DNA of 54,457 nt, filler included, from Sluysia triapertura (lineage: Eukaryota), in NCBI GenBank assembly GCA_046118255.1. It is 4 parts of 4 records of this genome, joined end to end, with 100 filler letters (N's around TTAATTAATTAA, not from the genome) between each part and the next. Parts side by side here need not be neighbours in the genome. Positions count along the whole stretch, not along the records: positions 1 to 12,243 come from JBJNIA010115641.1; positions 12,344 to 26,957 come from JBJNIA010253414.1; positions 27,058 to 41,961 come from JBJNIA010244654.1; positions 42,062 to 54,457 come from JBJNIA010099214.1. One strand, written 5' to 3'. The notes below the pieces were generated by a model. That model was not told where the DNA came from and did not search any database. It saw only the letters and a program-made list of their open reading frames with translations. This document shows, in pieces, positions 11,823 to 53,057 of this stretch. Position 1 is the first letter of the stretch. Each line of letters opens with the position of its first letter. Both the position numbers and the translations under genes were made by a program.

Positions 11823-12243
11823 TGTTAGGTCTGCCTTCACGACCCTTTAAGTTAACATAAAATGTTTTAAAATTATTTATAAGTGTCAAAAAACACCTAA
11901 AAAATATTAATTTTCCAAAAAAGAAATTTTATTTTCCAAAAGAAAAAGTTATTTTCTAAAAAAGAAAATAAAATTTCTAAAATAGAAATTAAGTTTCTAA
12001 AAATAGATTAGAAGCTTCTAGAATGTTCTAGAATATATTAGAACATTCCATCGACTTTCATTGGATGATGACTAGTATATAAATTAGCATCTTACAATGA
12101 AAATCGCCATTTAATTTTTCATTAAAATCGTCGCCATCTTACTTCAGCTCATTTGGTTTTCTACGCTTTTTGGAATTTTACATTCATTTGGACGCGAATT
12201 CAAATCTATTTTCACAAATCCATGCAAGGGTAAAATATTTTAT
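11823..12243 (+). mobile_element. HSE-containing LTR, copy 1 (truncated by contig end)
   Basis: Starts TGTTAGGTCTGCCTTCACGACCCT like the 51795 copy; the HSE-CCAAT-TATA core (~12010-12112) is near-identical to 51990-52092. Confidence 0.8.
12009..12083 (+). promoter_or_regulatory. Heat-shock element, inverted CCAAT and TATA box
   Basis: aGAAg cTTCt aGAAt gTTCt aGAAt aTATt aGAAc aTTCc = 7 of 8 alternating nGAAn pentamers; ATTGG at ~12060; TATATAAA at ~12076. Confidence 0.8.
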
Positions 12244-12343
12244 NNNNNNNNNNNNNNNNNNNNNNNNNNNNNNNNNNNNNNNNNNNNTTAATTAATTAAN
12301 NNNNNNNNNNNNNNNNNNNNNNNNNNNNNNNNNNNNNNNNNNN
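12244..12343. other. Artificial contig linker N44-TTAATTAATTAA-N44
   Basis: Same 100-bp construct occurs three times; the 12-mer has stops in all six frames. Confidence 0.97.
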
Positions 12344-12699
12344 TGGTTCATTTGTAAATCGTATTTTATTTTGCTGTCTTGCTTTATTTAACTGATTTTG
12401 TCTTTTATTTCTAATAAATTATGTATTCTGCTTAAATTATTTCATGTTATTTTCAATACAGTTATTATTATAAATCTTCTGTCATTGTTAAAATGTACAT
12501 ATAATGTATATCATTTATTTAAAATTATTTTGATTATTCGAAAATTTATTCATTCGTCCATCTCTATGAGATACGAATTATAGGCTCATTGTTATTGTAC
12601 TAAATTGGTTCGTAATTCCTGTTATACATTCTATATTTGACGTTCTCTGTAACAAGTCTAAATTGTTAAATAGCATCAAAAGTTGTGTAATTATTCGTT

Positions 12700-12945
12700 C
12701 TTTACACCCATTAATAAATTTTTCAGTAATTAATTCAAATTTTTGTTTATATATAAAACTTGGGTAAGCCTTATTTGCTAATTGTTTTAAATCAAATAAA
12801 AATTGTGTGATCGTTTCTTTATTACCTTATGTCATGTTGAAGTTTTTAAAATTAACTATTTTAGAATCTTTAGGGGACATGTGATTCATAAAATCACTAA
12901 TTAAATTTTGCGACGTATTTTTATTGTCATCTGGAATATTCAAAT
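12700..12945 (-). mobile_element. Gypsy-type gag remnant
   Basis: Minus strand: NIPDDNKNTSQNLISDFMNHMSP...FNMT*GNKETITQFLFDLKQLANKAYP..(fs)..LITEKFINGC, matching the gag pattern Q...ES...F...L..LA..AYP...L...F..G. Confidence 0.65.
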
Positions 12946-14793
12946 AAGTGAAGTGCTCCGATTATACTGGATTACCGTCAAGGGAAGGAGAAAAGATCTA
13001 TTGACTCGATAATCAATTCTTTTTTCTTGTAATTCTTGACATATAATGTTAAATTTGAAATTATAAACTTATTTTCCGATTAAAACGTCAAAATGAAAAT
13101 TTACTGTGGCATCAAAATTTGTGCTGTGTCTTTAACCAAAATTATCAATGATAACTCAACAATTGGATTAACACGTAATCTAAATATATTTAAAATATCA
13201 CAAAAATGACAAATAATTGATTATTCTTTAATATCAATATACAAATTGAAAGTTATAAATCAATAAAAGACAAATCCAGAGGTGATACGAAAAATGTTGA
13301 CTCCCGCATTAAACTAAAATAAAATAATAAGAATGTGGATCACTAACTGCAATAATATTAGTACTCCTTATAAGGCTTCAAGGAGTAAATCTTCAAGCAC
13401 AATTTTTATCACAAATGTGTTGAGGCAGCTTTATTTTGTATTTCTTTTGATATTTCTTTTGTCAAGATATTGTTGTTCAAATTTTATTTCGAAAATACGA
13501 TAACTTATACAGTAGTTGGGTTATTGCTAAGAAGATTAAAAATGGGAAAATATAAGTAATTACTTCGTATTATTCATTCTTTTGAGTCTGTTTTAAGCCG
13601 ACCAATTTTAATAATTAAATTTCGACCATAATTTCTGTCGGCTTCCAATTTATTATCTCCTGCAATCTCATTATCTTTTTTAACATAATATAACCAGAAT
13701 TAAATATTATGCTTTTCAAATAATACATCAACTTAAAATAAAGATAAAAGTAATTACAAAACTATATTTATTTTCCATAAGAATTTTTAATGCAAACGAC
13801 ATACGTTAACCTTACTTTGCATATCGATTTCAATAACATGTCAGAATTGGTATCTTAGCGAGCATCAATTTAATATATACTTTAATTGTATTACAACATT
13901 TAAATTTAATTTTAGATTATAAAAATAATCAAAATAACTAATCTTTACGTTATCTGTGTCGGCGAGTTTCTTAATATTTCAATACTAGGAATACTAATAA
14001 AATTCAACATTATTTTACAGAAATTATTAAATTAAAGAATTTCTATTTAAATTAATCAATAAATGCGCTTTATATTTTAACAAGAAAAGGTACTGTTTTC
14101 GTACCTTTATTTCTTTTATTTTGTATATACATTTCATCAACGCAATTTGTCGTAGTGTTTTATCTTATGTTCTCATTAATTCTTATACTATAAGCTAAAA
14201 GTCCTTATATTCACTTCATCTTTAATCAAACCCAACAGTATGAATAATAATCTTATGCTGTAAAAATTGAGCCATCGCATTATTATTATTAATTATAATT
14301 ATTATCAACTTTATTTTGATATTATTATTTTCATAATTACCTTTTAATATTTTTGCAGACATTTTAAAATAATGTTTGATCATTTTCGGTCCTGACATCC
14401 TAATTATTTGAATTTGTTTGATTAAGTGGTAGAAAAAATTAGTGCATTAATCAATATAGTTCTTAGTTATTAGGTATCATAATCATGGTTCCTACTTTCA
14501 TCAACTTATTGTAACTAAAAATTCTGATACAAATTTTAAAATAATCTTTCTTAGTGGATTATCTTGATATGATACTGCAAGTATTCTTACCAAGTTAGAA
14601 CCTACTTACAAAAGATTGTTGTCTGGAGCTGAACTCGGCTGATTAGAAACGGTTTACGTCACTAGTCAACGACGGTGTAATCAGGCTTATAACGTGGCGA
14701 AGTAATACGCTTAACAAAGGAACTCCTAACAAAAATTTATATTAACTTGTATCAAAAACAAAATATTAGTAACAATACAAATTTAATAAATTG

Positions 14794-15097
14794 AGACAGC
14801 CTTTGTACGGTCTGTCAAATAGATAAATTATTTTTAAAAAATTGAATCGGCCTTTTTACGGTCTGATTATAGTTAATGAATGATTTTAGTTTAGAGAACA
14901 AATCGTAAGCAAAAGAATGTATATTAGATACAATGATGTATATACAATGACGTGCTATTATAAAAAAGGTTATACAATTCAACAAAAAATCGTTAAACAA
15001 TTATAATAATAGTAATAATAATAATACGGATTTTTCCTTAGCCTGAATTAGATTTTAAAATTAAAGTTAAGACAGCCTTTTTACGGTCTGTCAAATA
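14794..15097. repeat. Three copies of a short GACAGCC-TTTTTAC-GGTCTGTC hairpin
   Basis: AGACAGCCTTTGTACGGTCTGTCAAATA (14794), AATCGGCCTTTTTACGGTCTGATT (~14845), AGACAGCCTTTTTACGGTCTGTCAAATA (15070). Confidence 0.8.
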
Positions 15098-18000
15098 AAG
15101 ATATATATTAAGTCTGATTTTAAATCCTATCAATACAATTAGGATACTAAAAACTTAATGATTACAAAGTTACTTTTGCATGGAAACTGTTTTTGTCTAA
15201 TCCTTTTCTAAGATTTTAGATTCCTTATTTTCTTGTGTCTTGTAAGCTAAAAGTGTTTGTTATTTATATTAAAATTACTTACCTCCATATTTGTTTATTT
15301 TTTAATTTATTAAAACAATTTATTTCCTCTTTGGTTTAATAAAACAAAAGAATTTTCATATTATTAATTTATTTTATTTTATAATATTAATAATTATTTT
15401 ATAAATTATCAACATCATTATAATAAAAATAATTTTATAAAAACCAAAAATAAATAAATTAAATATTCAGATCATAAATAAATAAATTAAATATCCAAAT
15501 TATAAATATCAAGTTATCAATATAAATCAAATATCGTAATTTGCCAATTAAATATCACAATTAAGTCAATTGTTATTTTCAAGTCAAATATCATACACCA
15601 ATTGACACCAACACCAACAATACTGAATATGATTTGGTAATTTCGCGTTTACGTTTCCTTGGAAAGAAATATAATTGTAGATGGATTGAAAAAAGGTTAT
15701 TATTGCTTCATTTACGATTATGAGAATCATACAAAAATCTAATTAAAATTTGATTATAATACAATTATAAATATAAAATTATCTTATGTTGTTAACACTT
15801 TAATTATTATGCTCATTCGTAGAAATAGCGTGTCTGACAGTCACTAATCAAGTGTAATATGCAACAATGTATAAATAATAAATATTGGCACAACTATCTG
15901 GAACTCAATATACTTAATAAAAAGTATTAGTTTTGTAGGTAGATCATCTTTTATTAGTTGTAAAGTTTTTTCGGTGTTGATCTAATGTGTGATTCACGTG
16001 CAGAGTCTGATCTACAAAAAATAGTTTTAATAATTTTGTGATCTAAATTTAAAAAGTAATATTTCTATAAATGCATGAAATTTCAAATAAATGTTTAGGA
16101 TCACTGGAAACATGATTTATAGTGAAAGTATATTGTAATGCTACACTTAACATAGAACGTACTATAAACACATAGTTGTGCTTTCTGATAAGGGTTAGTC
16201 TGATTTTTTTATCTCGTCTTATCTAAAAATTTTCAAAACTGCATTTCATTTATTTGTCTTTCTCGTAGGTTGGAACGATAGCGGTACGTAATAAGCAAAT
16301 TTTATAGTCAAGATATTCATAATACGTTATATACGTTATATGTAAAAGATGGTGTTAGTGCTTCTGAAATCTCCTACAATTATAAAAATTAATTAAAACT
16401 TTAATTAAAAATAAACAATAATTAAGATAATTTTAAAATAAATAAAAAACAATTAAAAGACAATTAAACAAATTACAGAATAAACAAAATTCAATTAAAC
16501 AAATAGGAAATTCATTAAATTAAATTTATTATTTATTTTTGCAAGCAATAAAAAAGTAGTATATAAATTTTGCACAAGACAAAAACAAATCGGACAAAAT
16601 AACTATCAATTCCATACGAGTTATTATTAGTTCCATATGATTTGGCAATTATCATATTATTGTTGAAACAATACTCCATCTTTCTGTATTTGTAAGTTTA
16701 TTATTGATAAGGTTATTCTACTTTAGGGTAGAACCAAAATCAGCGTAAATTTTTAATTATTATCTACGATTAGTTTTAACTAAGTATAAAATTTATATTT
16801 GCAATAAATTATTTTATTGTAATAACACATTATTTTATTATTGAATTTAATTTGTTTTTGGTAATAAACCTTACCATCTTAGTCATTTTGATTTAAACTA
16901 GGTAAAAAAAGTTTTGAAAATAATTTTTAAAAGGTTTTGGTCTATCTGTACATACGTATCCCATTAGGTATAAAACGTATAGTATAGACGAACCCATTCT
17001 GATATTTTACTTAAATTAAGAAAATATTAATAGATATCAGAAAATAATCCAAAATCAAACATTAGACTATTACATATGATCTTTCAAAATCATAATGCAT
17101 TAAATTTGGTCGAAAAGTCTTTATAATTTTCTTGAAACATTTTTAAATGCTTTCTCAGTATCAAATGTAGTTAAATATTAGCAATTATGTGATAGATAGA
17201 TTGAATATCTGGTCGTTTCTAGATAAAAATAATAAATTACTGATTGATGTTCTATTAAAACTGAACATTTTAAGTAATTTTATTATATTTTATTTTAATA
17301 GGGACGTTTTAAAATGTAATTCAATTTTTAAACGTGCAGATCAAATAAATAATCAAAATTTTTTAATTAAATATTACGTAGTTTTTAAAGCAACTTTAAT
17401 ATTAATAAATACTTTTATCAACATAAATATTAATATATAATAAAGTATAAAATTTAAGCAAATGTATCTAATTTAAATTTATCATGGAATATCTATATTC
17501 TAATAAATCTTAATAAAAATTATATTTATGTATTATATTTATATATTTGAATTTTTCGTGCCTTATTTTGTATTTTCCAGTACGGCAAACCTAAAATATA
17601 TAATTACTGTGTATATTATAAAACTCAACAGTTATAATTACTATTTTATGGGTTCGCCTGTAATCCTGTGATTAATATCCCCATGGAAGACACGGTTTGC
17701 TGTCAGTTTACTACGTAAAGCGAGTCTTACAACGAAGCAAAAATATAAGTTTACTCGCTAAAAATTATGTAAATTACAAAATGATTGTTTATCTATTTTT
17801 TTTCGCTATGAACAAAACTAAGTTTTCTTAACAATATTAATTTGACTGTTACTCAATTTCAGTTTAATATTTTAATGACAAATGAAAAAATGTAAATCAT
17901 GACTAATTTTTTATTAAACAACCAATGTTTAATATAATATAGAAATATAAACACCAATTTTAATTCTGAAACTATGATTTAGACTTTTTATCGATTTTAA

Positions 18001-22204: not shown

Positions 22205-22914
22205 CTTTCATTAATTTCATTAGAAGTTGCTTTTATACCATATTGGCATTTTGTTTGATGATCCCGTACAATGATCACAAAACTGCTGTCTTCAGGACAA
22301 ACAGATAAATGCATCAAATTTATGGGCACTAAATGATATTTGTCTTCTTTTCTTTCATAACAATACAACAAACAACTTAAAGTCAATACACAATATAATC
22401 GAAATTTTTGTTGATTTTGATTGGTTTTCACGTAATTTGATTTGGAATCTGTTGAACTGGTCTCATAGATTATTGTATCTAATTTAGTAAAATCCATATA
22501 ATCTTGAATATAACCGAATTTTCTGGATATTTTACGAAATTTTTGTATCTGTTTATCAAAAAATTCTGAATTCGAGTCAAACAAGCCTGATATATTCTGT
22601 TGACATAATAAATGATAGCATTCTTCACAAACCGGTCGATATTCATCACAATATTCCAAATATACATTATATCTATTGCTTATGCAATCTGTGCAATACA
22701 AAAGACCGTCTGAACAACAATGTACACGTTTATCGAATGATTCAAAACGTTTCTGACATGAAAATCCATTACAAAAACTTGTATCGGATACTTTCTGCCA
22801 TTTAGGAGCTTCTAGACCAAGCAACTTCATAGTTTCTAATTCTTGGTAATTGATTTTACTGTTTAAATTAACTATTTGTTCAAAGACATCATTTTCTTGG
22901 CAACTTTGGTTATG
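22205..22914 (-). CDS. Internal exon encoding FYVE plus a C-terminal PH domain; FGD-family RhoGEF-like
   Basis: Open 236-codon exon between a tttcag acceptor and an AG|gtttt donor. LG..APKW, C...C..F....R.HC..xG..YC..C, RPVC..CY, then PH-like CVLT..CLLYCY...ED. The FYVE-then-PH order is typical of FGD proteins. Confidence 0.7.
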
Positions 22915-23791
22915 CTGAAATTATTAATTATTATTTTTAATAATATTTCATCCATAAATTTGTAAAAAGTTAAAAAATATCGGCACTAATTCATTGATTT
23001 CTAGAGTAAACATATTTTAAAAATATTTTGTGTACTATAAATATAGTTTAAAATGATTTTAAAATAAAAGTACATAATATTATGTTCCACTTTACATCTA
23101 AAACGCACAAATACTCACGTTACAACTAAAAAATGGTTAAAAACTCACAAAATATCTTTATAAACCAAAATTAGGAGCCAGAAATCAATAGGCAAATGTG
23201 AAAGAAGAAAACAAGAATCTACACATTTAATTAGCATCTACACAATTTTACAAATCGAACGTTGACGTCACTAAAACATGAAAAGTCCACTTAAAGTGAA
23301 TACCAACAGTCACAAACAAATACTAACTAGCAAAGCGGATATAAATGAAGTACATATTGAGGAAAATAATATATCACCAAAACGAAATTATATAGTTTAA
23401 TTTACAAATACATGAATAAAATTTGCTATGCAGCCATAATACGAACTATTATAAAATTTAATTGGTCAGAAAGAGAAAAATTGAATAAATGGATGTTGAC
23501 TATAGAGAGAATCTTATACGGTGAAAATTGAATAATTAATGGTATATTTATTTTTCATATTCGCATCTTATTGATCTTATTATGAGTTCAGAGATTTAAT
23601 CTCTTTAAATGACTCAATTAAGGTCTAACAATTTAATTCTGTTCTACAAATTAATTTCACATAATGGTCCGTTCTTTGATTCGTTTATTAATTAACTTTA
23701 CCTTAGTACAGAATGTTTAAATTTATCATTTTTAATTTCCTCTTTTAGCTATCGATGAATTTATTAAGTACTTAACAATGTCGAATTTGTC

Positions 23792-24360
23792 TGTAATGTT
23801 ATTTTTCGAAAAAAGAAAAAGAAAAGAAAATTTGCTTCTAAAAATAGAACATTCTAGAATATTCCACCGATTCCAATCGGCAGATGACTAGTACATAAAC
23901 TAATAATCGTTTTGCAGTTAGTTTGTAACAGTATTTCAATTTTCAAAATTGCTTGGAGTCATTCAGTCAAATCTTGTTTATTTTAATTATTAGTCCGCGA
24001 TATATTGAGGTGTAAACTCTTAAAGTTTTAATTTTAAATTATTTTCTTTTTTATCATCTTACGCTTTTATACTTAATTCTTGTTATTAACACATTTATTT
24101 ATTCATTTTGTAAAACAAAAAGTTATAGTCTTAGTTTCATTTTATTGAATAAACGTTTTACTAAGAGTTGTAAATTAAATTAATAAATTTTGAGACAATT
24201 AAATATATATATTTAATTTGTTAAATGAGCATTTAATGCGACCCTCATTGAGGAGTACTGCTATTTTGATAATGTATTACAAGAGCACCCTCTTTATGAC
24301 ATAATTGAACCCTTCTCAAAAGTATTTTGCCGTAGGTTAATTGTTAGAAAAACCACAGCA
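23792..24360 (+). mobile_element. HSE-containing solo LTR, copy 2 (569 bp)
   Basis: TGTAA...AAAACCACAGCA with TGTC duplicated (23788-91, 24361-64). AGAACATTCTAGAATATTCC, CCAAT and TACATAAA at ~23846-23899. GATATATTGAGG.GTAAA and the 3' end are shared with copy 3. Confidence 0.85.
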
Positions 24361-26875
24361 TGTCTGATTAGTTCTGATTCATGAAGCTATATTGGTTCTA
24401 ACTTCTATTTACTCTTCTTGATTACAAAATTTTTAGCTTTATTTGGCTAAATTATTTTCGTTTATTTCTTGAAAGGTGTTATTGTACATTGAATGCAACA
24501 AATTATTACAATTCATTTTCTCACTAAAATTTAATACCAAAACACAATAAAAGAAAAGTACAACAAATAAAATAAGTTATTACAAAGGTTATCACCTCAT
24601 TGCCATTCTTTTAAATTTTGTTTAAGATTTTGTTACTAGCGTATGTATATTTTATCTTTTCGCTTAAGGAAGAGTAAACCTTAACTATAAAAAGCTTAGG
24701 TAATTACTGACACTGGATGAAGAAAAAATGTTAATAATTTACAAGAAAGGTATTATTAAAATCGTGACCTTAAGTAGTTCATAAATGATATATTGTCGGT
24801 GTTTTTTGGTACAATATCTTCAGTACCATTTAGCTCTGGATAAATAATAATAACGAATTTGATATTTTAATATATTTAATCGAAATTAACTCAAGCTTGC
24901 GTGTGTAGTTTTAGTTAATTTGCCTATTACTTTAATATTCATTTTTATTATTTTGTGATTATCTGGATTTATTAGTATTTGTGCTTTCTAGGCAATTAAA
25001 ACCAATTTATTCATATTATTATTATCATTATTATTATTATTAATTTTATTATTATTAATTTAAAGTGTTGCTTTAAAATGTTATTATACATGCCAGGACG
25101 TATATGTTTGAATGAATCTTTCAATTTAAAAAAAAATAATAAACTAAAAAATAAAATAAATCATAAAATCCCGGTACATCTCTTAATAAATGTGACACAT
25201 TTTTACTTACCTTTGTTATTAATTGTATTAGCTAATAAATATTATATAAAAGTTTTATTTAGATTTTTAGGAGAATATTAGACTCACTCATACTCAATTT
25301 AGCATTTCTATATATACATGCCAATCAAGAGACGAGTTATAGTTTTGGAAAAAATATATACAAAATTTATAAATTAAAATCAGAGAATAAAGAAAGTTAA
25401 ACATTAAAATCTTCAAAAAATTTGGTAATATTAATAAATAACTTCACATTTTATAGATAAAACCTACAATAACATTACTTTCAAATGTTGATATTGAAAA
25501 ATGCCTACATGCACATACAAATTCACATAAAACTGATTAAATGACTAACTTCAGACTGATTGTCAATTCCATTTAACCAATGATTTAAATAATATCGTTA
25601 TTCAAATGTAATATTTTATTTTTATTAAGAATTACTAAATTTCTAAAAAGAAATATTTTAAAAGACGCTGTTTATGTTAGTTAGTTGTATAGAAAAATTT
25701 TGATTTTCTCGATTTCACAAACTTTTATAAGATAGAAGTTTTAGCATGTGTACTAAAATTTTGAATTCTGCGAAATTTAAGATTGTTTATTCTCAGTCTA
25801 AGAGTTTTATGTAATACAAGTCAAAGTTCCTATATAAACTGATAAAATATTTAAATATTTGTTAATTTTGGTAAATATTAATAAATTTTTAAAGACACGA
25901 ATAATATCATTTAACTTTAATCTTTAAATGTGTTACTGATCTGCATCATTCCATTTGTTTTAATTTATGATTTTAAATATTACAAATTTAATGAATGTGC
26001 TGTGTATTTTATTTAGTTTTATCTACCTTTGCAAAATAATTTCGAAGGGCTAGCCTAGAGTAAACTTCCTAAAAAGAGAGGAGTCTATGGGATTTAAAGA
26101 GGTAATTGTAAGAATAATTGTACTAAAGATTGATACTATGGTCAGATCAGATCAGTATAATACTAAATTGTAATATATGTTTTCAACAATGAATGTGTTT
26201 CACAATGTATAAGTCTTGGCTCTATTAACTCAAATTCTTTTTATCCTATAAAGTAACTAAATGAAGATGTAAATGATTGAATAAGTAAAATCGGAAAACT
26301 AATATATTATACTTAATGTAACATAAGTACTTCAATAATTACACACATAGAATACATAATGTTTAAAAAATATTAAGATTACCCTTAATATTGACTTTGT
26401 AATTTTAACAGGATTTTAATGCTACCAATAAAATAGCAAAACAAATAAGGTAAATACTTATAAAATGCGCGAAAATAGAATCAATGTTGTTCCACATCAA
26501 TCTTGAGAGAAAATCTACAAAATTTAGTAGTAGAATTTCGAATAATATTGAGTCAATTAATTTCTACTATTTTCTATTGTCTCGTTACTTTATATACTAT
26601 TCCACAAAAATTATATTACTACAATAATGATATCTAAAACAATTATTTCTTTTATTATTTCAAAACCATTATTTCTATAATAATAATTAAATGATCATTT
26701 CAATAATTATTCCAGATATTACAACAATTAAAATAATTATAATATTCGTAATTAAAACTTTAATATTTTGAAAATAATTATTTTTTTACAATTGTTTTAA
26801 TACTTTACAAATGTTTTAAAGACAGCGTATTTAACTACTGTATACTCATACAGATTTATTTATATTTGTTTTATA

Positions 26876-26957
26876 CTCCATCTGTCCGAAAATAAGAGTC
26901 CCATTTCATGCAAAAATTTGTCCGAAAATAAGAGTCCCATTTCAATTTTACTGTGAT
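26876..26957 (+). mobile_element. End of a Tc1/mariner-type element with a Stowaway-like TIR
   Basis: TA|CTCCATCTGTCCGAAAATAAGAGTCCC, with a perfect 26-bp direct repeat (26883-26908, 26919-26944); runs into the contig end. Confidence 0.6.
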
Positions 26958-27057
26958 NNNNNNNNNNNNNNNNNNNNNNNNNNNNNNNNNNNNNNNNNNN
27001 NTTAATTAATTAANNNNNNNNNNNNNNNNNNNNNNNNNNNNNNNNNNNNNNNNNNNN
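26958..27057. other. Artificial contig linker
   Basis: N44-TTAATTAATTAA-N44. Confidence 0.97.
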
Positions 27058-34963: not shown

Positions 34964-35869
34964 GTTCGTAGATTTTTTATTTCAATAATATTTCTTATTT
35001 ATATTGTTTATTTGAAACTCTGAAACAATAGTGCTTATAACTGATGATGTAAACTGTTTATTTAACGTTAATATGATATTATAATTTTTAATTTAAATCG
35101 TTTATGGGAATATCTTTTCTAAGTATTTATGTGCGATTTTAACACTTTGATATCTTGCATTTTTCAGACGTTCAAATTCAAAATCAAATCTTTTGCATTC
35201 ATATAAATTGTTTTCGTGAAATATTGATCACTTTTTGAAATGAATTTTTAGGAAAAAATTGAAAATTTCTTTTTATTTTAAGAATTTAAGTCGATTGCTT
35301 ACTGTATGTTTTAAATTTAAGGTAAAGCAATAAAAGAAATAAGCCATAGTCGAACAAGCTTTGCGATATTTAACAGGACTGGGCAAATTACATGCCTGCA
35401 TTATTTTTCTGTTTGAACGTATTTTCGGTTTATATTTGAAAAGCATTTTTGAATGTACGAGAATTATAAAATTTATAAATTTATGTTGCATTTCAATTCG
35501 TAATTTATTTTTTAAAATAAAAAATCAAAATTTATTAAGTTTTTTCAAAATTATGAAATATAAGGTTTGTTGATTGAGATTATTTGTGAACATTCCTTTT
35601 AAATTAATTAAAATGAATAAAAATTCACAAAAACTCCTTAATCTATTTACAATTAACACGATTATATTAAATAATTTTAAATTTTCCATAATATACCATT
35701 GCATACAGTTGCAGGTCCCAAGATCTAAATCAAAATACATAAATGATAACAATTCGTTGTAAAATTTATAATTATTACTTTATTTGATTCAGCGTCATTA
35801 ATTTCTCGCGTTGACTTTGTATTCGAGTAATTGTCGGTCTTGAGTTGTTATACTGGATAATAATGCTGG

Positions 35870-36911
35870 TTCCTGAAGTTGATTGATAGTATGCGCGAAT
35901 CTACACCTATTTCCAAATTTTAGGCATTGTCCATTCTGATGAGATCTGTAAGCGCAGAGTATGTGATACATATTGACAGCACGGGTAATGTTGATTTCGA
36001 GATTAAATTGCTAATTTGTACATTGTCATTATTTTGATCATCAGTGGTTGACTCGTGCACATAATTCACCACCATTCTGTCCTGCATTGATTTTTGTTTT
36101 AGCTTTTTAGATATAATTTCTTTTGAAACATCATAGATCTTTTCGTCGAAAATATGTGAATAAATATAATTGAGAATCTCATCAATTTTTTTAGCATATT
36201 TACGTACAGGTATTTCTATGGTTCATTGTTATAATCGTTGTTTGGTCTATCAATTTTAATCCATTTAAATTGAAAATCATATCGATATCGCAAAGTGAAT
36301 TAGACAAATTATCGAAGACATACTTAGTTGTAACACTATCATCTAACATTTCTTGACTTACCAAAACAGATCAATTACAGTCATTTGTGCACATTATTAT
36401 GCTGTCTTGTTAAAACTAGATAAACATTATCTTTAGATTTATCCATTTTTAATTTAAAACTGCCTTGCTTGCAAGGACTTATAGAATCTCTTAAATTGCT
36501 AAGCTGATATCTAGTAACTTAACCATCTCATCAGAAACCGAGCAATGAATACTCCCAAATTATGTTTGAGATTATAGCCTTCATAATTGATATTTTTAGT
36601 AAAATATTGCTTCTAATTTTCAGTACTAGAATCATTAATATCATGTTCTTGATCATTGTTATCTGAATTTAACAAAATATTTTCGTTTGGTGGACAGGTA
36701 ATTACCATTTTTGTTATATTTATATTTATAAATTTGACTATTTGAGAAATGTAGTTCACTGTTGAGAATCGTTTTACGAAACGTTTGTCTTTTATGAAGT
36801 CTAGATAATCTCTATACTTTATCGATTTAATCATAAATAGCTCGCCTTTGGTATCATCTCGTTTGTTTAAAGATAAAATATTAATAGCCATCAAATTTGT
36901 TTCTGTTTCAT
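35870..36911 (-). pseudogene. Decayed ORF ending in an intact Cx9Cx6Cx3H finger (copy C), in a HUWE1 intron
   Basis: YHIL-C-AYRSHQNGQ-C-LKFGNR-C-RFA-H-TINQL with Cys1 to His at 35956-35891. The upstream part (including ORF 36894-36613) is broken and unrecognised. Confidence 0.7.
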
Positions 36912-36976: not shown

Positions 36977-37142
36977 TGAGTGGCTGTCCAACCAGAAGTA
37001 TAAAAATGATGAAAGTGATCACTCTGGTTGGACAGATATTAGTAAGACAAAAATTAATAGAATTGACAGACAAGCCACTATCAATGGTGACGAGAATTCG
37101 TACATAGTAATCACTAATGTCATCATTGATAGTGGTAATTAC
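36977..37142 (-). repeat. Paired inverted-repeat module
   Basis: CTGTCCAACCAGA (36984-96) / TCTGGTTGGACAG (37023-35), 26-nt spacer; CCACTATCAATGGTGAC (37075-91) / GTCATCATTGATAGTGG (37119-35), 27-nt spacer. Confidence 0.9.
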
Positions 37143-37790
37143 TGGTTAAGTGATAGAAATAAAAATTAAAAGTAATGAAAGAATAAAAATAATAATAATA
37201 ACAATGCTATTATTATTGTTATAAATACATAAATTTTTTCTACTTAAAAGAACACGATCGTTCTTTATATTCTTGACATATTAGAAGTTACGGGAATTAA
37301 AGAATTGTGATGTTATATATATATATATGCCACTAAAGCTTTGTTAATTTTAAACGAAGTAATGAAAAATTTAAAATATTTTAACGTACGCACTTGCGTT
37401 ATATAAATTAATATAGTATATAATATGACATAATGTCCATATAAATATTAAAAAATGATTGTTATTAATTACCAGTAGTCTTTGGGTTATTTGAACATTG
37501 AGTTACATGACTGTCATTTTTGTGCATTATTAATATTATATATTCGTATTTAAATCCCCAAAGCACAAATAACTCAATGATATTAATATGTGCGAAATTG
37601 TGCTACCATAATACTACGTTCTAATACCTGATTAGATTCTATTTCGACCTCACTTTCAATTTTGACATAGGTGTCATTGTTTTCTCACATATAATAATAT
37701 TATTATTATTAATTATAATTATAATCATTATTATATTTGTATAAATTTTGTACTAAATATGAAAATACAAATTATTTTTTATTTATTCAG

Positions 37791-41887: not shown

Positions 41888-41961
41888 CAGTCGGACCCCG
41901 TATAACGCGACCCCCAATTACGCGATTTCGTTATCAATATATGTTTGTTAATTCTTTTTTC
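41888..41961 (+). mobile_element. End of a pogo/Tigger-like element
   Basis: TA|CAGTCGGACCCCGTATAACGCG with a repeated ACGCG site; runs into the contig end. Confidence 0.6.
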
Positions 41962-42061
41962 NNNNNNNNNNNNNNNNNNNNNNNNNNNNNNNNNNNNNNN
42001 NNNNNTTAATTAATTAANNNNNNNNNNNNNNNNNNNNNNNNNNNNNNNNNNNNNNNNNNNN
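41962..42061. other. Artificial contig linker
   Basis: N44-TTAATTAATTAA-N44. Confidence 0.97.
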
Positions 42062-42716
42062 TACTTCTACTTCTACTATTACGACTACCACTACTGCTGT
42101 AAGCATGAAATTCACAACATCGGCATTTTATCGAGGGATTTGACTGTCTGAATCTTGTTCCGATCTCTGTCAATGATTATTTACATCCAAATTGTACAGT
42201 GTGCTGGATAGGTTGAACTTGAGATATTCATTACACACTTTTAGTGGTAAAAATTTTTTTGTTATAGTTTTTCCAGGATTTATCTTTCTGATGTGAATAT
42301 GTGCCTGTCAGGTCTGTATAGAGCCATTCAATTTGTCCTTAAAGACAAAGATGATTTTAAATTTTATATTTCCTCATACCATTGTGACTCTAGTTAATTT
42401 AACAAGCTTTCCCTCGTCAATTTCAGATAATTCACTCTAGACCTAGTTCTAAACATCTGGACGGCATCAGCTTGTTACTATGTGTATGTATTATTTTCAC
42501 ATAAATCAACTCAAAAATCATATCTAATAAGTGCCCTAAGTGCAACTTAATTTACTGTTCGAGTGAGAAATGTGTTAATTTCAAAGTAAATATTAAATAA
42601 ATTATGCGAAAAGATTATTGAAGTAGTGCTGATAAAATATTAATGTGGTATTATCACTACTACTATTATTATTATTACTACTATTTAAAAATAAGTAACA
42701 TATTCACTGTGTGCAG

Positions 42717-43025
42717 GTATGTTTGTGGGTGCACTATGTGCAGTAACTGGGGTACTAACTATTTCGCTTCCTGTTCCGGTAATTGTGTCGAATTTTTCTA
42801 TGTTTTATTCGCACACGCAAGCTCGCAGCAAGTTGCCTAAGAAACGAAGGCGAGTGTTACCAGTTGAAGCCGTGCGTCCCAAATTAAAGTTGGCGGCTGC
42901 AGCAACAGCCAATCACAGTCGACTTGTTATTAGTCACAGTCCTCAGAGATTGTCCAATCATCAAACGGCCTTGGGTGTTACAGAAAGGCTTTTGTCCAAT
43001 TACAAGAGTCCTGCTATCATAACTG
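42717..43025 (+). CDS. Shaw: Shaw/Kv3 voltage-gated K+ channel exon (S6 and proximal C-terminus)
   Basis: [51 protein letters not shown]. tgcag acceptor; either a G|gttaga donor after 43025 or read-through to the TAG ending at 43030. Confidence 0.92.
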
Positions 43026-44165: not shown

Positions 44166-44280
44166 CATCATTATCATCATATTTTTATTCTTCATCATCA
44201 TTGTCATCATAATCACCATCATCATCATTATCATCATATTTTTAGTCTTCATCATCATTGTCATCATCATCACTATCACC
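44166..44280. repeat. CAT-rich 57-bp tandem duplication
   Basis: CATCATTATCATCATATTTTTA.TCTTCATCATCATTGTCATCAT at 44166 and 44223. Confidence 0.85.
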
Positions 44281-45617
44281 ACTTTCATATCTTTTTGATC
44301 TTATTATTACTTAAACTTACCCTGATCAAAGAATGAGTTATGTTATGAGTTCGCTTACGATTCTAGTCTTACAAGAAGTGGCTTGGTATGATTTTAAAAG
44401 AATCTATTTCTTTCATGCAAGTTCCAAGGTTATTTTGAGGAATGCATTGAAAATTAAAGAATGGTTCCGCCTTAGGCGAGTTTAATAAAATTTAACTTAC
44501 ATAATAATAGGATTGTTTTCCGCTTTATAGCGAGATTATTAATAAAAAGTTAAACTGAACCGTTGAAAAGCTTCATTTTATAGTTCGGTATTATGCACGA
44601 AATGTTTAGAATGTTTTTAATGTGTTGAAGCCGTGTAATTTAGATTTTGATAGTACTTTCGATTCAAATCAAAGGGATCGATAAAATGTAAATCACAAAT
44701 TTAAGACAAAAAATTATATTATGATAACCTAACAGAAATTTAAGACAACGTAACTTATTTAGAAGCAATAATTAAAAAAATTTAATAAATTAAATGTGCA
44801 GTTTACTGAATTATTATTATTAATTTTAATCGGATTTTGAAAGATGAATGGAAACAAATACAAAACTAACGCGTACCGAAGTAAAAATGATCTCTGTAGA
44901 AATAGCCGATGAAAAAGTCTTTTGTTTTTTCTTCGGATATATCGATATTAGAATCTCTTTTATTAATTTACTTCTAGACAATTGCTTTCTAACTTTAAGA
45001 AAACAACTCAGAAATTTTATACTTACCAATAGTTGATTTTCTGTGGCTGTTGATACTCCTTCTTCAAAATTTATTTTATGACTAATAAAAAGAACATTAA
45101 AATTTGTCTAAAATATCAATAAGAATTTTCTTTTAACCTATTAATGTTTTTATTTTTGAATAATTTATAAATAATTTAAAATAATTTATTTTATGATATT
45201 TTATTAATGTGATTATGAGTTGATTGCTTTTAGAAGATTTTATTTGATTTTAAAACTTGGTAGTGTAAAATTACTTTTTATTAAATGTAAGCAAAATGAT
45301 AAAATGGGAAGTTTGCAGACAGTAAATGAGAATCTGTAGATAAAATAATATTTTATTTATTAAATCGAATTTAAAAAATTCAATGTTTATAAAGTTCGGT
45401 TTGTATATATTGTTTTCTGACAGCCACGTTTCACTATCTGAAAAAGAATCAAAAGTCAAGTATCTTTAATGTAATCGTAAAAAATATTTACCCTATTATT
45501 ACCATTAGTACTGTTGTTATCAAGCATTTCCGGAGTTGGTACACCGATGCTTACGAATAAATCTGAGAGTCTAACGAGATGATCCGTTCGGAAAGCACAG
45601 TTGACTTTATAGTCCAG

Positions 45618-45712
45618 CAATTGATTAACAGTGTGTACATGCACGCATTTAGTTCCGAAGTTTGTACATTCGCATCTTAGTAAACTGTATAAGGACAAAG
45701 TACTGGTTTATT
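45618..45712 (-). pseudogene. CCCH remnant (copy D) downstream of the primase fragment
   Basis: KPVLCPY..(1-nt loss)..EC-TNFGTK-C-VHV-H-TVNQL; first Cys to His spans 65 nt vs 66 nt in copy C. Confidence 0.7.
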
Positions 45713-46319
45713 TGCGACGAACTGAATTAACAGTAACCGATCAAACGGGCATTAAATTCTTGAACATATTATTTGCGTTTTGTTCATTAGGGGAATCGGT
45801 ATAATGATATACTGAGCACTTCTCCAAGCCATTTTTATCTTTATTGTCCTTGTTTAACTCAGATGAGTTAATTGGTGGGGCTTTATTTGGCATTCACTTT
45901 ACTCTTAAATTCATTGTCAGAATCTCAAAAAGTTTAATCTTTTCTATATTCAAGACACAATTTTATTTAGCTATTGCAGCGGCTGCAAAAACTCTCTTAT
46001 ATAGTTTAGAGTAATCATGAATATACTAGTAACTATTGGAGGGAACTTCAAATTTTGATTTAGATCACTCATATTAATACGACTCATTATATCTCTTCTT
46101 ATTCGAAAACTCAGCATCTTTTGAATCATCTCAAATTTATCTTTACTATTTTCAATTAATTCTGTACGAGTTCGCATCATGAATTCATAAAGGGCATCTT
46201 CTTTTAAATTTTCGGGTAATCTTTTAACTTCTAAAGTTGAATGACATTGAGAAAATATTCCAATAGAGTTGTTAAAGCTTAATCTAGTTTTGTTACTGAC
46301 ACTGGTGATGAGAATGAAT

Positions 46320-47007
46320 TAGGTAAAATATCCAAAATATATTTGATTCTTCCAGGATTTTCTAGCATTTTTTAAAAGCAAATCTTTTAAAATTATTTGT
46401 AAATATCGCTATACTAGCTCTTAACATCTTTCCATTTATTATTTATTTTAATTCTATTTTGCCTTGTTTATAACGACTTATAAAACCAACCAGATTACTA
46501 CACTAATTGACATAATAACTTTACCACATCATCAAAAGCCTCTTCTTCCAGAAAACACCCACCAAATATGTTTGAAATCAAAGTCTTCAGTTAGAATACG
46601 ATGCAGTTATTCCTGCAGTTATCAAAGTCTAACTATTTTTTTTACAAACATCTGCCTTTGAGCAACAATTTCGAAAATCATCATAATCTTTTATGTGAAT
46701 AGCAAACACTAAATCTTTAGAAACCGGCTGAAGTAAATAAGACAAATGATTTATTGGTATTGGGAGGCATGATAAAAATGATACCAATGTCAATTTTATA
46801 CGGATTCTTTTTAATCAACTCGGTTTTTAATTCATTTGCATTACGAAACGACAAATAACATACATAAATATTATCCTTCAATGTAAAACTAAATTCTCGT
46901 TTAGCAAAATTCTCCTCATTATTTTTAGATAACCATTTAAAAAATAATTGATATGGAAATACATTAACATAAATATTTCTTAAATTTGCTTTAAATTCTA
47001 ATGTCAT
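46320..47007 (-). pseudogene. PRIM1: DNA primase small (catalytic) subunit, intronless decayed copy of the N-terminal part
   Basis: FPYQLFFKWL...FAKREFSFTLKDNIY.Y.SF....LK.E...KNPYKIDIG, then across stops and frameshifts KDLVF.I..DYDDFRNCCSKADVC and L.EDF.FKH.WWVFSGRRG. Confidence 0.92.
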
Positions 47008-47107
47008 ATATATATATATATATATATTGTCTTTAAAAACATTTTTGGTTTCTAAATATGCTATTAATAAAAATGAATTTAATAGGTTAATTACTATTCT
47101 GACTGTC

Positions 47108-47422
47108 CAGATTGGTTGTTCAACCAGAGTGATGCAAATAATGAAAAGAGCTACTCTGGTTGGTCAACCATTAATACACTGAAAAATGTCTCACATGGAG
47201 AAGCCAACCATTATCTATTATGACAAGAATTTATACATGAAATGATTAAGTGTGTAATGAACTGTCATCAGTCGACAGTTAGTAAAAGAACACCTTATTG
47301 ATTTCGACTGATGGTAGGTTAACAGCAATTAAATTTTTGTGCGCTATAAATACAGCTACCATCAGTGGTGACAATAATTGTAATTGTGAATTAATGGTGT
47401 CTCCACTGGTAGTGGTAGTTAC
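47108..47422 (-). repeat. Paired inverted-repeat module with an extra IR pair
   Basis: TGGTTGTTCAACCAGAGT (47113-30) / ACTCTGGTTGGTCAACCA (47153-70); CATCAGTCGA (47266-75) / TCGACTGATG (47304-13), 28-nt spacer; CCATCAGTGGTGACA / TGTCTCCACTGGTAG (~47359-47412). Lies ~100 bp upstream of the primase ATG. Confidence 0.9.
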
Positions 47423-49042
47423 AAAGTTGGTCGATAGAAATTCTTTAAATAAAAATAATAAAAATAAAAATAATAATAATAATAATAATATTATTATTGA
47501 AAATTTAATTCGCTTAAATCTTTTGATTTGTCTTATTAATAACACGATCTTCCTTAATATGTATATTTCTTTTTCTTAACATATTTATAATATCTTTGTT
47601 TGCTGTAATGTTAGTTCTTTTTCCATTACTATGTCTTAAATTGATTTTATAATGTAACTTTAATATTTTTCGATGATCTATATGATTGAATGTTGAAAAA
47701 TTATGAACTTGAAATGTTTTGGATTAGTTTGGTGTATGTGTATTAATGATTTTGGATGTTAGTATGGTATTGATATAAGATTGTGAACTTAAAATGTATT
47801 GAAAAGAGAGTGGTTTAGTGAATGTAAAGAAGATAAATTATAGTCTAGATTTTGGTACATTCTAAAAATTATGCGATATTGAAAAATATGATTTTGATTA
47901 TGTTGAAATGGAACTATGTATAAAAATGTTTTTAATGCGTTTTAAAAATATACATTGTAGACTTTGAAAGTGAATATGGTTTTGTTGTATTCAAAAGAAA
48001 ATTTTTTAATAAAATTTGTTAAAAGTAATAGGTTAAATGATAAATATATGAAATTAAATTAAATTTTAATCTAAGAAGATTTACGCAATATGAAAAGGGC
48101 AGTTGAGTAACAATCCAGATTATAAATTTAAAGAATGCATGGAATGAAACTGGTACTAAGGCAGTGAGTGAATATTTATAGTAATGTTTGAGGTAACAAA
48201 ATTGTTAAAAATAATAAATTGTTAAATCGAAGAAATGTTTCTTTTCAATAATTCAAACAAAACCACGTAAATTTAAATATCGTTCAAACGTACAGGAGCC
48301 GTATACAGCGATGTTAGTTTTAAAATAAGTAATGTTTATAGTGCAAAAATTGACTGGAACATCGGTCTTTAAACATCGGTCAAATTTTGCCTAAGTGGCC
48401 AACGCTGATATTTCAGCTCTAGGTCAGAACAATGATTAGAAATTATTTTATTAGAAAATGATTTAAAATTATTTTGTAAATAAAATCTTTATGTAAATAA
48501 AATAAACTATTCAACATATTAATTTTGTGAAATAAAATATTAATAAAATAAAATAATAAATTTAAAATTAAATATTGAATTTAATATATTAAAAAATTGT
48601 AATAAATTTAAATTTAAATTTTAAGTATGAATAAATTTAATAAATTAGAAAAGTTTTGTTTTATCGGATCAATTTTTGCCTTATGGCTTTATATTGAAAA
48701 ATTAATATTATTTTTTATATTAACTGAGTATTGCCTATTTCACAAGTGAACAATAAGTTTTAACTTAAAATTAATCACATACGCAATTACACCCACATTA
48801 CAAATTTGTAATGATTATTGAACGCTATTTAACCGAATAAGTAGTAATACCTTCTACTAGTTATAAAAAATCCTAATAATACGTCCTACAGAAATAAATG
48901 TAAATCATGCTTATTAGGCAGACTGACTCTCGGATTATTTTGTAAGTATAAAATTATGTTGAGATTAAGCTTTAATAAAGAAAAACACTTGCAATAATTT
49001 AGAAATTTTGCTATAATATTTTAAATTATTTTAATTAATTAG

Positions 49043-49701
49043 GTAGTTCTAGTATTTGGAGGCTGGACAGATGGCGAAGGTCCTCGGGCAGCTGCCCAAG
49101 TATACGATCCACGAGCTGATAATTGGACGTTATGGACTGAATTTTCTACAGATATTAATTTACTTGGTGAAATACCAAGACGTGTTTATGCCGGTTGTGT
49201 GTTGGTTAATAAACGAGTTTATTTGATTGGTGGATTTGATGGAACAAATGCACTAAAATCAACGTTATGTTATGACTTCGATATTGATTCTGGTTGGTAT
49301 GAAATCAGTTGTATGTATGAAAAACGATACTACGTAAGTGTAGCATATTACAATAAATTCATTTATGCACTTGGTGGACATAATGGTGAAAATCAGGGTC
49401 GCTTAGATACAGCAGAAAGATTTAATTTAGAACAAAATTTATGGCATCCAATTGCATCTATGCGTCGTGTACGTTCTGATGCTTCAGCTGCTGAATTGCG
49501 AGGTAAAATTTACATTTGTGGTGGTTTTGAAGGTCGTCATTATCATGATTCAGCGGAATACTATGATCCTGATATCAATCAATGGACACTAGTAAATCGT
49601 ATGTCGTCACCTAGAGGAGGCGTGAGCTTGGTTCGACATGATAACTATATATACGCAATAGGGGGAAACGATGGACATAGTCGATTAAGATCTATTGAGC
49701 G
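49043..49701 (+). CDS. Kelch-repeat exon, KLHL10-like
   Basis: aattag acceptor, CG|gttagt donor; VLVFGGW...YDPRADNW then GG-type kelch repeats; MYEKRYYVSV and RSDASA motifs resemble KLHL10. Confidence 0.88.
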
Positions 49702-51734
49702 GTTAGTTTTTATATTGTTGAAAAATCTCAGATAAGTTAGAATTATTTTGTTACTCTTTTTGTGAAGTAACAGTTCGAGTAGTCAGAGTAGTGTATAGTG
49801 GTGTTAAAATGTAGAAAATTTTAGTGCATTCGCAGTCTTCAACATAACTTAATTCATGTTGGTAATTTAATTTATCATAGTCTGAAGTGTAATACAAGTT
49901 CATTAAGTCTTTACGTGTCATTCAGATTTTAAATCAGTTTTAAATTGATACCAAATTAATCACACACTTTCAATTATTAATTAAAACAAATTATTTTTTT
50001 CTATTAGTGAATAAATAATAAATAAATACTGTATATCTTTTGAAATTTTGAGATTGTCGTTTATTATGAACTTCTTCAACATAAATCTTATAATTTTAAA
50101 ATGACAAAAGAAAATATTAATTAATTGAATTCTTCATTATCATCTTTATAAGTCAGAATTTGCTACAATGGATAGCAAAATAGGCAATTGTATACAGCAA
50201 AACAATCCAATAAATTATTATTGTAAAATCTTGGGAGTAAAGGAATGTTGACATTAGAACTTTATTTAAATTTTGTTTATGAATTTGAACGTTGATATAA
50301 TTTTTATGGAATATTTTATATGAATTATTATTGAATTATATGGATTATATTTATTTTTATGAGATTTATAAAATTACTTTATGGAATATTTAAAGGTATG
50401 ATTTTTATTATAAATTCTTAGTATAATTTTAAATTTTATTACACAGTGAATTAACGTGATTAATAGAAAATTGAATTAAATTATTTTTAAATTAAAATCT
50501 TAAAAATTAAATTCGTTTAAAATGCAACCAAGGTCAATCAAATCAAATAACACAATTTTGTTCACCAACTCGCAATAAATGTACACATTAATACACATAT
50601 TTTGACAATTGCAAATTTATTATCAGCTCCCTCTCTTTAATAGTTGTTACAAGTCTCTTGGAGCCAATTCGATTTTCTATTGTTTGACAAATTAATTTTT
50701 TTTGATTTAAATATTTTATTTTATTTTGATTTAAAGGATGACGTTAGTTTAATTATTTTAAGATTTGATATATCTATATCGCACGTAAAATCTATTAATC
50801 TATTAAAATCTTTTAAATCATTTTAGGATCCAACGAAAAATATTTCAATAAAATCCTTTATATTATTCATTAACTCAAAGAATTAATTATTGTAATTCTT
50901 ATTACTAGCCATTTGTACACTTCTAAGCAAACGTTTCTAAATAAATCATTCATAGTTAATTTTTGTTTACAATTTACATAGTTTTACATAAAATTTATCG
51001 CTTCGAAAAGATTTCCCAAAGTTAGAATTTAAATCTAACAAAGCAAAATAAATTTATAGATTACATTTCAAGGAATCAAGGAAAAATCACCCAATTAACA
51101 TTATTATTACTTTTGATAAAATAATTCAATTAATATTTCTGACTTACCTCCAGACAGTTAAAAGTATAAATTAGGCATTTTTTGAGCATCATTTGAGACT
51201 TTTTGATTTACAAAATCCAACAGCTGGCCCTACCGGTAAGCCCAGTACGTTGGTGAACTCACATAAAACTATCTCTTTATTCTATTATTTTACTTTAAAT
51301 TACTCACTTTTACACAGGTACATCAAAATTTATTTAGGCAATAATAACAATAATTTAATATGATTGTAGAAAATATAATAATGAAAAAAATAGTAAACCA
51401 AGTTTGCTTGCGGTTTTCCACATTTCAATAGCTTCAAATTTTATAAAGCAATAAGGATGTCCATTATATTTATCTAAACCTTGGTCATAATTGATAAATT
51501 CTGATGCATGTCTATAGCTATTACCAATCCATTTATATTTTTCTTTGAAAATTTTATTATGTTCTTTGCAAATGTATTATTATATTTATCATTTTTATAC
51601 CACTAGAATCCACTGTTATTATTACTATAACAAGAATAGAACATAAGTATAATAAAAATAAATTTCCACATAAATCCTTGTTTGTAAAACAATTTATTGA
51701 TTTTTTCATAATTTTTATTTTTATAATTTCAGAT

Positions 51735-53057
51735 GATATCGTGGCAACAGCGGTTGGGGTAATAACTAAATAAATACTTTCAGGATGAGAAAATTGTTAG
51801 GTTGCCATCACAACCCTACGAAATAATTTTAAGATGTCATAATGACACCTTAAAATTATTTAATACTATTTAAAATTACAAAAAATCATTCAAAACTATA
51901 GAAAATGTTTAAAATGATTTATTAATCCTTAAAATTATTTTAAAAAAGTATTTTCCAAAAAAAGAAAATTAGCTTCTATAAATAGCAGAGAAGCTTCTAG
52001 AATGTTCTAGAATATTTTAGAACATTCCATCGATTTTCATTGGATGCTGATTAGTATATAAACTTGCATCAGTACAATGAAAATCGCCATTTTTATAATC
52101 TTTATTAGTCAGTCGCTAAAAAATGAAAAATTTATCACGTGACGCAGTTATTGGCATTCGTAAAAAAGCAGTTCGAAATAAATCAACAGTAAACGCCATT
52201 CAAATCTACACTGGTTAAATATTCAAAGGATATTGAAAAAATTATTCATTCGGGTTTTTTGATCAGTTACAATCCATGCTAAAAGTAATTTGTTTATGTT
52301 AGGATTGGTATTAGTTTTTCTTAAGGAAAGTAATATCACAAAATACACTTAAAATCATATTCTGTTAATCTTAAGGTTCCCGATATATTGAGGGGTAAAA
52401 TCCAGTGTAAATTAATAACCAGTTTTTATTAAAGACTCAAAAGAGTTTTAATATTAAAATTCGCAATTAATTTTTAACTCTTGATTCTTTTATATCTTGT
52501 CTATAATTTAGTTGTTCATTTTTTATTTAATTGTTTTTGAAATAAAAATTTTTATTAGTCGATTGTGAATTTAATTAAATTAAATAGACCCTCTAATTAT
52601 AAGATTATAATTTTAAGTTACTGTAGTTATTTTAACTTATATTGTTACAGAAGTGCCTTCTTTACAACGTAAGAAGCTTACCGTAACCGGACCCTGCTCA
52701 ATTTTCTATTTTTCCTTAGGTTTAGACTTAAGTATCAATAAAAACCACAGCAAAATCTAGGATCAAATTCCATGATTCTACACCCTTCATCCGATATTTT
52801 TCTGAAAATTTCAAGTACGCGTTCAGCACTAGTTGTTTATTTTCAACTTCATGTTCATCACTTTTAAAAGTAACAAAATAATCTAATCCATTTTTCTTAT
52901 ATTTTGGCTGAACAGAACCACATCCAATTCTAACGCTTATAAGTTGATTTTGTCCATCTCAATCTTTATTTCCTTCCGTAACGGGAGTTGGAGCACAACT
53001 GTTTTTCTTTTTATATAATTCATAAATTAATTCCAACCGTTTTCCTGGCAGAATATT
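51735..53057 (-). pseudogene. RPB1: RNA polymerase II largest-subunit fragment (clamp region), split by a solo LTR
   Basis: KRLELIYELYKKKNSC...GCGSVQPKYKK(fs)GLDYFVTFK...(fs)SAERVLEIFRKISDEGCRIMEFDPRF. Removing 51795-52752 and one AAAT restores an in-frame DPRFSHPES, followed by an LP.P-like segment. Confidence 0.8.
51795..52752 (+). mobile_element. HSE-containing solo LTR, copy 3 (958 bp)
   Basis: TGTTAGG...AAAACCACAGCA with AAAT duplicated (51791-94, 52753-56); HSE at ~51990-52029, ATTGG, TATATAAA at ~52055. Confidence 0.9.

Follow-up and report, generated by a model that had tools for sequence, protein, structure and literature searches.

Three copies of a dispersed element, each with an array of heat-shock element (HSE) units upstream of a TATA box, are found in a 54,457-nt stretch of DNA from Sluysia triapertura (GenBank assembly GCA_046118255.1; hereafter the window). 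The copies are probably solo long terminal repeats (LTRs) of an abundant LTR-retrotransposon lineage driven by heat-shock factor (HSF), and that lineage is probably Ty3/Gypsy or its non-autonomous partner. The window has ~25% G+C and consists of four contig pieces (1-12243, 12344-26957, 27058-41961 and 42062-54457) with N-spacers between them. The copies lie on three of these pieces, with the coordinates and lengths (569 and 958 bp for copies 2 and 3) given in a preliminary description of the sequence. Papers are cited by PMC number.

The three copies and their heat-shock element arrays

11823-12243 (+): copy 1, the 5' 421 bp of an LTR-like element, truncated by the contig end (N-spacer from 12244)
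11906-12003 (+): copy 1, tandem repeat of degenerate A/T-tract units of 20-21 bp, upstream of the HSE (4.8 units; score of 101 in Tandem Repeats Finder)
12010-12049 (+): copy 1, HSE, 7/8 phased nGAAn/nTTCn units
12060-12083 (+): copy 1, reversed CCAAT (12060-12064) and TATA box (12076-12083)
23788-23791 (+): copy 2, left target-site duplication (TSD), TGTC
23792-24360 (+): copy 2, complete 569-bp solo-LTR-like element of the short-HSE type, with TG...CA ends and a TSD
23846-23865 (+): copy 2, HSE, 4/4 units
23873-23899 (+): copy 2, forward CCAAT (23873-23877) and TATA-like TACATAAA (23892-23899)
23998-24010 (+): copy 2, internal block of 13 nt at a distance of 363 nt from the 3' end, exact match to copy 3
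24148-24153 (+): copy 2, candidate poly(A) signal AATAAA, 213 nt from the 3' end, suggestive only
24348-24360 (+): copy 2, terminal 13-mer, the same as in copy 3 and nowhere else in the window
24361-24364 (+): copy 2, right TSD, TGTC
51791-51794 (+): copy 3, left TSD, AAAT
51795-52752 (+): copy 3, complete 958-bp solo-LTR-like element of the long-HSE type, with a TSD, junctions in public run X1 and an empty site
51989-52028 (+): copy 3, HSE, 7/8 units
52039-52062 (+): copy 3, reversed CCAAT (52039-52043) and TATA box (52055-52062)
52381-52393 (+): copy 3, internal block of 13 nt at a distance of 372 nt from the 3' end, also present in copy 2
52541-52546 (+): copy 3, candidate poly(A) signal, 212 nt from the 3' end and in alignment with its counterpart in copy 2
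52740-52752 (+): copy 3, terminal 13-mer
52753-52756 (+): copy 3, right TSD, AAAT

Copies 2 and 3 are bounded by TG...CA termini and by 4-bp TSDs (TGTC and AAAT, respectively; other lengths from 2 to 7 give no match), in agreement with the preliminary description of both as complete elements. Copy 1 ends at the contig edge at 12243, so that its 5' end alone is readable and its 3' end, TSD and solo status lie beyond the sequence read. Copies 1 and 3 are identical at 21 of their first 25 nt. Copies 2 and 3 are homologous in the promoter block and the last 100 nt (z 6.5, 0/300 shuffles) and collinear across the last 360-370 nt (z 8.0, likewise reached by 0/300 shuffles). The 5' end of copy 2 is set by TG and the TSD alone, a site of this kind being expected by chance within 300 bp with a probability of ~0.05. 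The poly(A) candidates of copies 2 and 3, which in a U3-R-U5 layout would follow the internal Pol II promoter, are weakened by the frequency of AATAAA in the window, which is 3.4 per kb. A search of the window for further weak copies, performed with nhmmer and nine segment queries, returned only the three copies and self-palindromic matches.

The HSE arrays of copies 1 and 3 each contain eight phased units, seven of them perfect and the first five contiguous, and the array of copy 2 contains four units, all perfect; these counts match the preliminary ones and lie far above shuffles. All perfect three-unit HSE matches in the window fall inside the copies (8/8; three overlapping matches in copy 1, two in copy 2 and three in copy 3), as do all perfect four-unit (5/5) and five-unit (2/2) matches, compared with means of 0.75, 0.025 and 0, respectively, in 200 dinucleotide shuffles. 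Elsewhere in the window, one site (22500-22505) attains 4/8 units and lies within a coding exon. Hairpins in the core (z -1.8 to -2.6) form because the HSE is palindromic, and constitute no added evidence.

A TATA box lies 26-27 nt 3' of the array in all three copies. The preliminary description had the HSE followed by both CCAAT and TATA, of which the TATA box stands throughout; CCAAT in the forward orientation is present only in copy 2, and in copies 1 and 3 it is reversed, as ATTGG, and displaced to another aligned position. Approximately 30 nt past the TATA box, CGCCATnT motifs occur twice in copy 1 (12085-12140), once in copy 3 (52063-52093) and not in copy 2, and resemble a YY1/initiator-type site.

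Insertion, abundance and the conserved promoter block

Dispersal was assessed in contigs of a public run (X1), which contain 0.53 of the sampled words from 46000-53150. The run was aligned to 50900-53150 at 80% likeness and 9,030 contigs were placed; figures for loose ends and joints come from the rows listed, which are a minority of these tables (824 loose-end rows, 49 joints) and include none at the 3' end. Exactly at 51795, the 5' boundary of copy 3, 81 contigs start, and the sequence that precedes them is unrelated (median 255 letters, agreement 0.43). The site of copy 3 is also found empty: one contig (depth 18) links the left flank to 52752 with a single AAAT and 42 letters on the short side, and a second contig over the right flank (5,601 letters, depth 24) likewise starts matching only at 52752. 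Both contigs listed across the right flank therefore lack the element, and because one AAAT is kept, copy 3 is a true insertion with a 4-bp duplication. These junctions, together with the TSDs and arrays, bear out the earlier proposal of a dispersed high-copy family with solo-LTR anatomy and an HSE upstream of TATA.

Summed X1 contig depth, which is not a copy number, amounts to 89,807 at 51820, 283,755 at 51988, 188,270 at 52051, 417 at 52153 and 45,091 at 52682, and falls to 42 at 52784 in the right flank, so that the HSE-to-TATA block is the peak within copy 3. Division by ~20 per copy, and then by up to 31 for overlapping contigs, gives rough bounds of 460 to 14,000 copies for the promoter block and 145 to 4,500 for the 5' end of copy 3. 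The 81 junctions provide a firmer floor for copy number than these depth-based bounds, and the density in the window itself is 3 copies per 54 kb.

The block is shared more widely than the sequence around it. At 52093, 83 X1 contigs diverge from the alignment into dissimilar sequence, and the promoter block is therefore common to many subfamilies; groups of 53 and 57 contigs have shorter HSE arrays that resemble the array of copy 2. Between copies 1 and 3, the HSE is identical at 39/40 positions, the CCAAT-to-start region (from the end of the HSE to just past the TATA box) at 57/64 and the whole promoter block at 96/104, compared with 164/238 for the LTR bodies, which is the level of shuffled AT-rich DNA (69%). 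The preliminary description took an HSE followed by CCAAT and TATA to be the best-conserved part, which holds for the block relative to the bodies but not for the HSE relative to the adjacent promoter (p=0.15). Because the bodies lie at shuffle level and the HSE is not significantly above its neighbour, the conserved unit, in the window and across X1, is the entire promoter block together with the short termini, and not the HSE alone.

An alternative origin of the array is as a by-product of A/T-tract tandem duplication in U3, shared among subfamilies by recombination or conversion and not by selection for HSF binding. The 20-21 bp repeat of copy 1 holds TTC and GAA out of phase and extends up to the HSE, and it may be guessed that the HSE of copy 1 grew out of its units. 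The number of HSE units also differs (4 vs 8), single X1 contigs lack the array partly or wholly (joints at 51982-52019, 51985-52029 and 51985-52038), and a comparison of copies 1 and 3 gives equal conservation for core letters and spacer letters. However, the upstream repeats of copies 1 and 3 are not alignable above shuffles (z 1.1) while the phased arrays are (z 14), and the spacing from array to TATA box is constant. Copy 2 differs from the last four units of copy 3 at three positions, two in spacers and one that perfects the unit of copy 2, although these numbers are small. This origin is held to be improbable.

Element class and host

The host was placed by a kelch-like exon (49043-49735), which exhibits 78-81% identity to trematode and cestode proteins over 181-182 residues, 63-71% to those of Schistosoma, 59% to that of a monogenean and 54% to that of Macrostomum. 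A tree of this exon (18/40 matches used) did not resolve the class within flatworms. Because its identities are highest to trematode and cestode proteins, the host is most likely, as judged from this exon, a neodermatan flatworm, a group without PIWI (PMC8191739).

As expected of solo LTRs, copies 2 and 3 have TG...CA termini and a TSD within the range of 4-6 bp, and dispersed copies in X1 share the exact 5' boundary of copy 3; a fixed short TSD with TG...CA ends is the product of an integrase, and solo LTRs are the product of LTR-LTR recombination (PMC4558846). All three 5' ends fit TGTNR, the pattern with which most Gypsy elements start (PMC2836005), and the 3' ends give TGCTG on the opposite strand. 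Neodermatan Ty3/Gypsy elements and their solo LTRs produce 4-bp TSDs (PMC12471100; PMC4558846), with 63/65 in the case of lennie (PMC4558846). Gypsy membership is likely, being favoured by the TGTNR starts and by the 4-bp TSDs known from cestode Saci2/lennie elements.

The copies could instead be solo LTRs of another superfamily (Bel/Pao or Copia) or of a TRIM (a miniature retrotransposon with terminal repeats), which is an unlikely but not negligible assignment. No coding region turned up for classification among 136 frames, LTR TSDs in general range from 4 to 6 bp (PMC8220671), and TRIM solo LTRs have the same TSD length as the copies here (PMC4558846; animal Helenus, PMC10886601), with 4-bp TSDs in most cestode ta-TRIM solo LTRs (52/57; PMC4558846). 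HSEs are also present in two Copia families of the flatworm Macrostomum lignano (PMC12801592). On the other side stand the TGTNR match of all three 5' ends and the dominance of Ty3/Gypsy in cestode genomes (PMC12471100).

A non-autonomous DNA transposon with integrase-like ends, of the Ginger type, would also begin with TGTNR and make 4-bp TSDs (PMC2836005). Known Ginger elements have terminal inverted repeats (TIRs) of 40-270 bp (PMC2836005), whereas the ends of the copies match at 5/10 and 16-19/40 positions, the two termini are different sequences and no TIR beyond the end bases is present, which makes this alternative very improbable.

Three candidates were tried and rejected, one of them the Ginger/MITE DNA transposon, the copies being without TIRs. 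Duplicated host hsp promoters were rejected because of the TSD and empty site, which indicate an insertion, and the lack of any hsp family in 136/136 frames. An element derived from a short interspersed element (SINE) or other RNA was rejected, as two Rfam matches and one ARAGORN match were obtained in the window and none lies inside the copies. Exact-pattern scans gave no matches in metagenome contigs or in viral contigs.

Several points weigh against the reading of the copies as solo LTRs of an abundant, HSF-driven lineage. No internal region was seen beside the copies, and 136/136 window reading frames of at least 55 aa gave no match to gag, reverse transcriptase or integrase. Copies 2 and 3 are not followed at their 3' ends by any primer-binding-site-like sequence, and a G-rich purine tract, as in a polypurine tract, precedes none of the 5' ends, so that the putative LTR identity draws on the anatomy, the ends and the TSD. 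At the 3' end the sequence closes with ...AGCA, whereas Se_Saci2 closes with ...ACA (PMC12471100). The right flank in X1 departs from the window at 18/176 letters (~10%), and the empty site may for this reason be a paralogue or a relative's allele. A short repeat in the flank of copy 3 (51204-51279) also attains a summed depth of 131,850, so that such peaks are not unique to the element; this repeat centres on an imperfect GC-rich palindrome near 51224-51245. To these are added the nature of summed depth and the p value of the HSE, as given above.

Predicted heat control and its meaning

The proposed mechanism starts from what is observed: exact insertion that duplicates 4 bp of the target, a high number of copies, and a HSE/CCAAT-like/TATA block that is conserved amid divergent LTR sequence. 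Integrase would have generated the insertions, and recombination between two LTRs would have left solo copies. Under heat or another protein-damaging stress, HSF trimers would occupy the 4-8 phased units, which lie ~25 bp upstream of the TATA box, and thereby activate transcription from the LTR, and selection on the transposing lineage may keep the promoter block because stress-timed transcription aids self-copying. Solo copies would carry the same switch, and those of them that lie in open chromatin, a minority, may yield heat-induced short or read-through RNAs. Heat induction and HSF binding of these copies are predicted on this basis. In M. lignano, 4/6 HSE-bearing LTR families were up ~250-fold at 37 C and mutation of the HSE abolished reporter activity (PMC12801592), and because RNA-seq and a reporter with a mutated HSE have already been applied to such LTRs there, the mechanism becomes more probable and less novel. 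Counting the other way, 2/6 of these families were not induced (PMC12801592), and less than 15% (107/815) of strong Drosophila HSE motifs were bound after heat shock (PMC2936546).

The surroundings of the copies bear on whether solo copies are active. The distance from copy 2 to a FYVE-domain frame on the opposite strand is 872 bp, and copy 3 lies 2,060 bp past the kelch exon; a role of any copy as a host-gene promoter is hypothetical. The sequence at 11594-11822, which ends at the start of copy 1, resembles by motifs what we take to be a decayed reverse-transcriptase remnant of a long interspersed element (LINE), with no Pfam match. On the minus strand at 52753-53190 lies a decayed fragment like domain 1 of the RNA polymerase II largest subunit. 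It is interrupted by stops and a change of frame, and it ends at the right boundary of copy 3. Its matches are weak (in Pfam, E 0.0008 in one frame and 0.014 in another; in PDB, E 0.01 for a match that ends at 52753), and a search of the fragment against 1.84 billion proteins gave five matches, all repeat-rich and unrelated to RPB1, leaving the RNA polymerase II reading unconfirmed.

It is only slightly less than an even chance that the dispersed solo LTRs are inert, with the HSE functional only in source elements and the solo copies in closed chromatin, an explanation that departs from the mechanism proposed above only in the step of solo-copy activity and in its importance. The unbound majority of strong HSE motifs in Drosophila would fit inert copies, and only two M. 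lignano solo LTRs lie <2 kb from mildly induced genes (PMC12801592). Copy 2 faces away from the nearest exon found, the FYVE frame on the minus strand, copy 3 adjoins the decayed gene fragment on the opposite strand, and copy 1 is apparently inside the old LINE remnant. However, the arrays and TATA boxes of copies 1 and 3 are intact, PIWI is missing in neodermatans (PMC8191739), and in Echinococcus transcription starts from solo LTRs at 38 loci, 22 of them with read-through (PMC4558846).

Other features of the window were noted apart from the copies. A remnant of a Tc3-like transposase helix-turn-helix is present at 2787-3059, and a tRNA-like sequence with a defective anticodon loop at 7409-7480 (minus strand), possibly a tRNA-derived SINE; the segments 7392-7549 and 4331-4484 are 76% alike. 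A separate dispersed repeat family has three copies of ~74% identity (9924-10086, 37073-37218 and 47354-47525). Short frames with unkempt-like CCCH zinc-finger matches occur on different contig pieces at 6526-6690 and 35801-36010, and are possibly a repeated fragment. An open frame of a degenerate 15/30-bp repeat at 10306-10716 codes for an N/D/K/Y-rich stretch. A potassium-channel exon at 42678-42793 reaches a score of 51.6 for Rfam K_chan_RES (threshold 51), probably due to coding similarity.

The capture of HSEs by transposons is already known from ONSEN, M. lignano LTRs and Caenorhabditis Helitrons. The preliminary description cited ONSEN and the Helitrons but missed the closest precedent, the HSE-LTRs of M. 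lignano (Mlig-id115 of Mag, id36/id55 of CsRN1 and id38 of Gmr1/Osvaldo; PMC12801592). Like the copies here, which satisfy the three-unit definition of that study, these LTRs come from a flatworm and bear canonical HSEs upstream of the start. For the M. lignano families, 4-20 copies were counted, internal regions are present and induction was tested, whereas the copies here, compared with them by description, are of the solo type, belong to a parasitic lineage and may, by rough indications, number in the hundreds to thousands. ONSEN (Ty1/Copia, Brassicaceae) likewise has HSE-like units in its LTR, with five cores in one 49-bp stretch (PMC13602373), but it is a plant Copia element with demonstrated HSF control, and the array here is longer and fully phased. 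In Caenorhabditis, most HSEs come from a transposon family (61.4% in C. elegans; PMC6927752), as those of the window come from the copies; those Helitrons, however, are rolling-circle DNA transposons with tandem HSE clusters and shown binding and nearby induction, and the copies here have one array each and their own TATA box.

Cestode ta-TRIM and lennie/Saci2 solo LTRs share the TG...CA ends and 4-bp TSDs of the copies, and some of the cestode LTRs promote host genes (PMC4558846; PMC12471100). The available text of these two sources makes no mention of HSEs in them ('heat shock' occurs 0 times in PMC12471100, and 'heat' only as heatmap in PMC4558846). Search listings of open-licence PMC and bioRxiv papers contained no report on LTRs of parasitic flatworms that bear HSEs. 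The copies are likely to be an additional case of HSE capture by LTRs, in parasitic flatworms, and are apparently far more numerous than the HSE-LTRs of the plant and the free-living flatworm. A much larger claim is rather doubtful: that, in a parasitic flatworm without PIWI, one cassette (HSE, CCAAT-like box and TATA) has come to be shared by many LTR subfamilies that otherwise cannot be aligned, and that the intact solo copies left behind, in their thousands, supply most strong HSEs of the genome and drive heat-induced RNAs and alternative host-gene starts, in the manner of Caenorhabditis Helitron rewiring.

HSE capture by LTRs has so far been tested in just two lineages, and more are predicted (PMC12801592). 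If the copies are silent, the family would be an ordinary one among repeats, and its promoter is of a kind already known. Parasitic flatworms experience temperature shifts in their hosts and in waters. If there are thousands of copies, it would become testable how the cell handles HSF sites that form so large a sink, and whether host genes are drawn into the stress response by solo LTRs.

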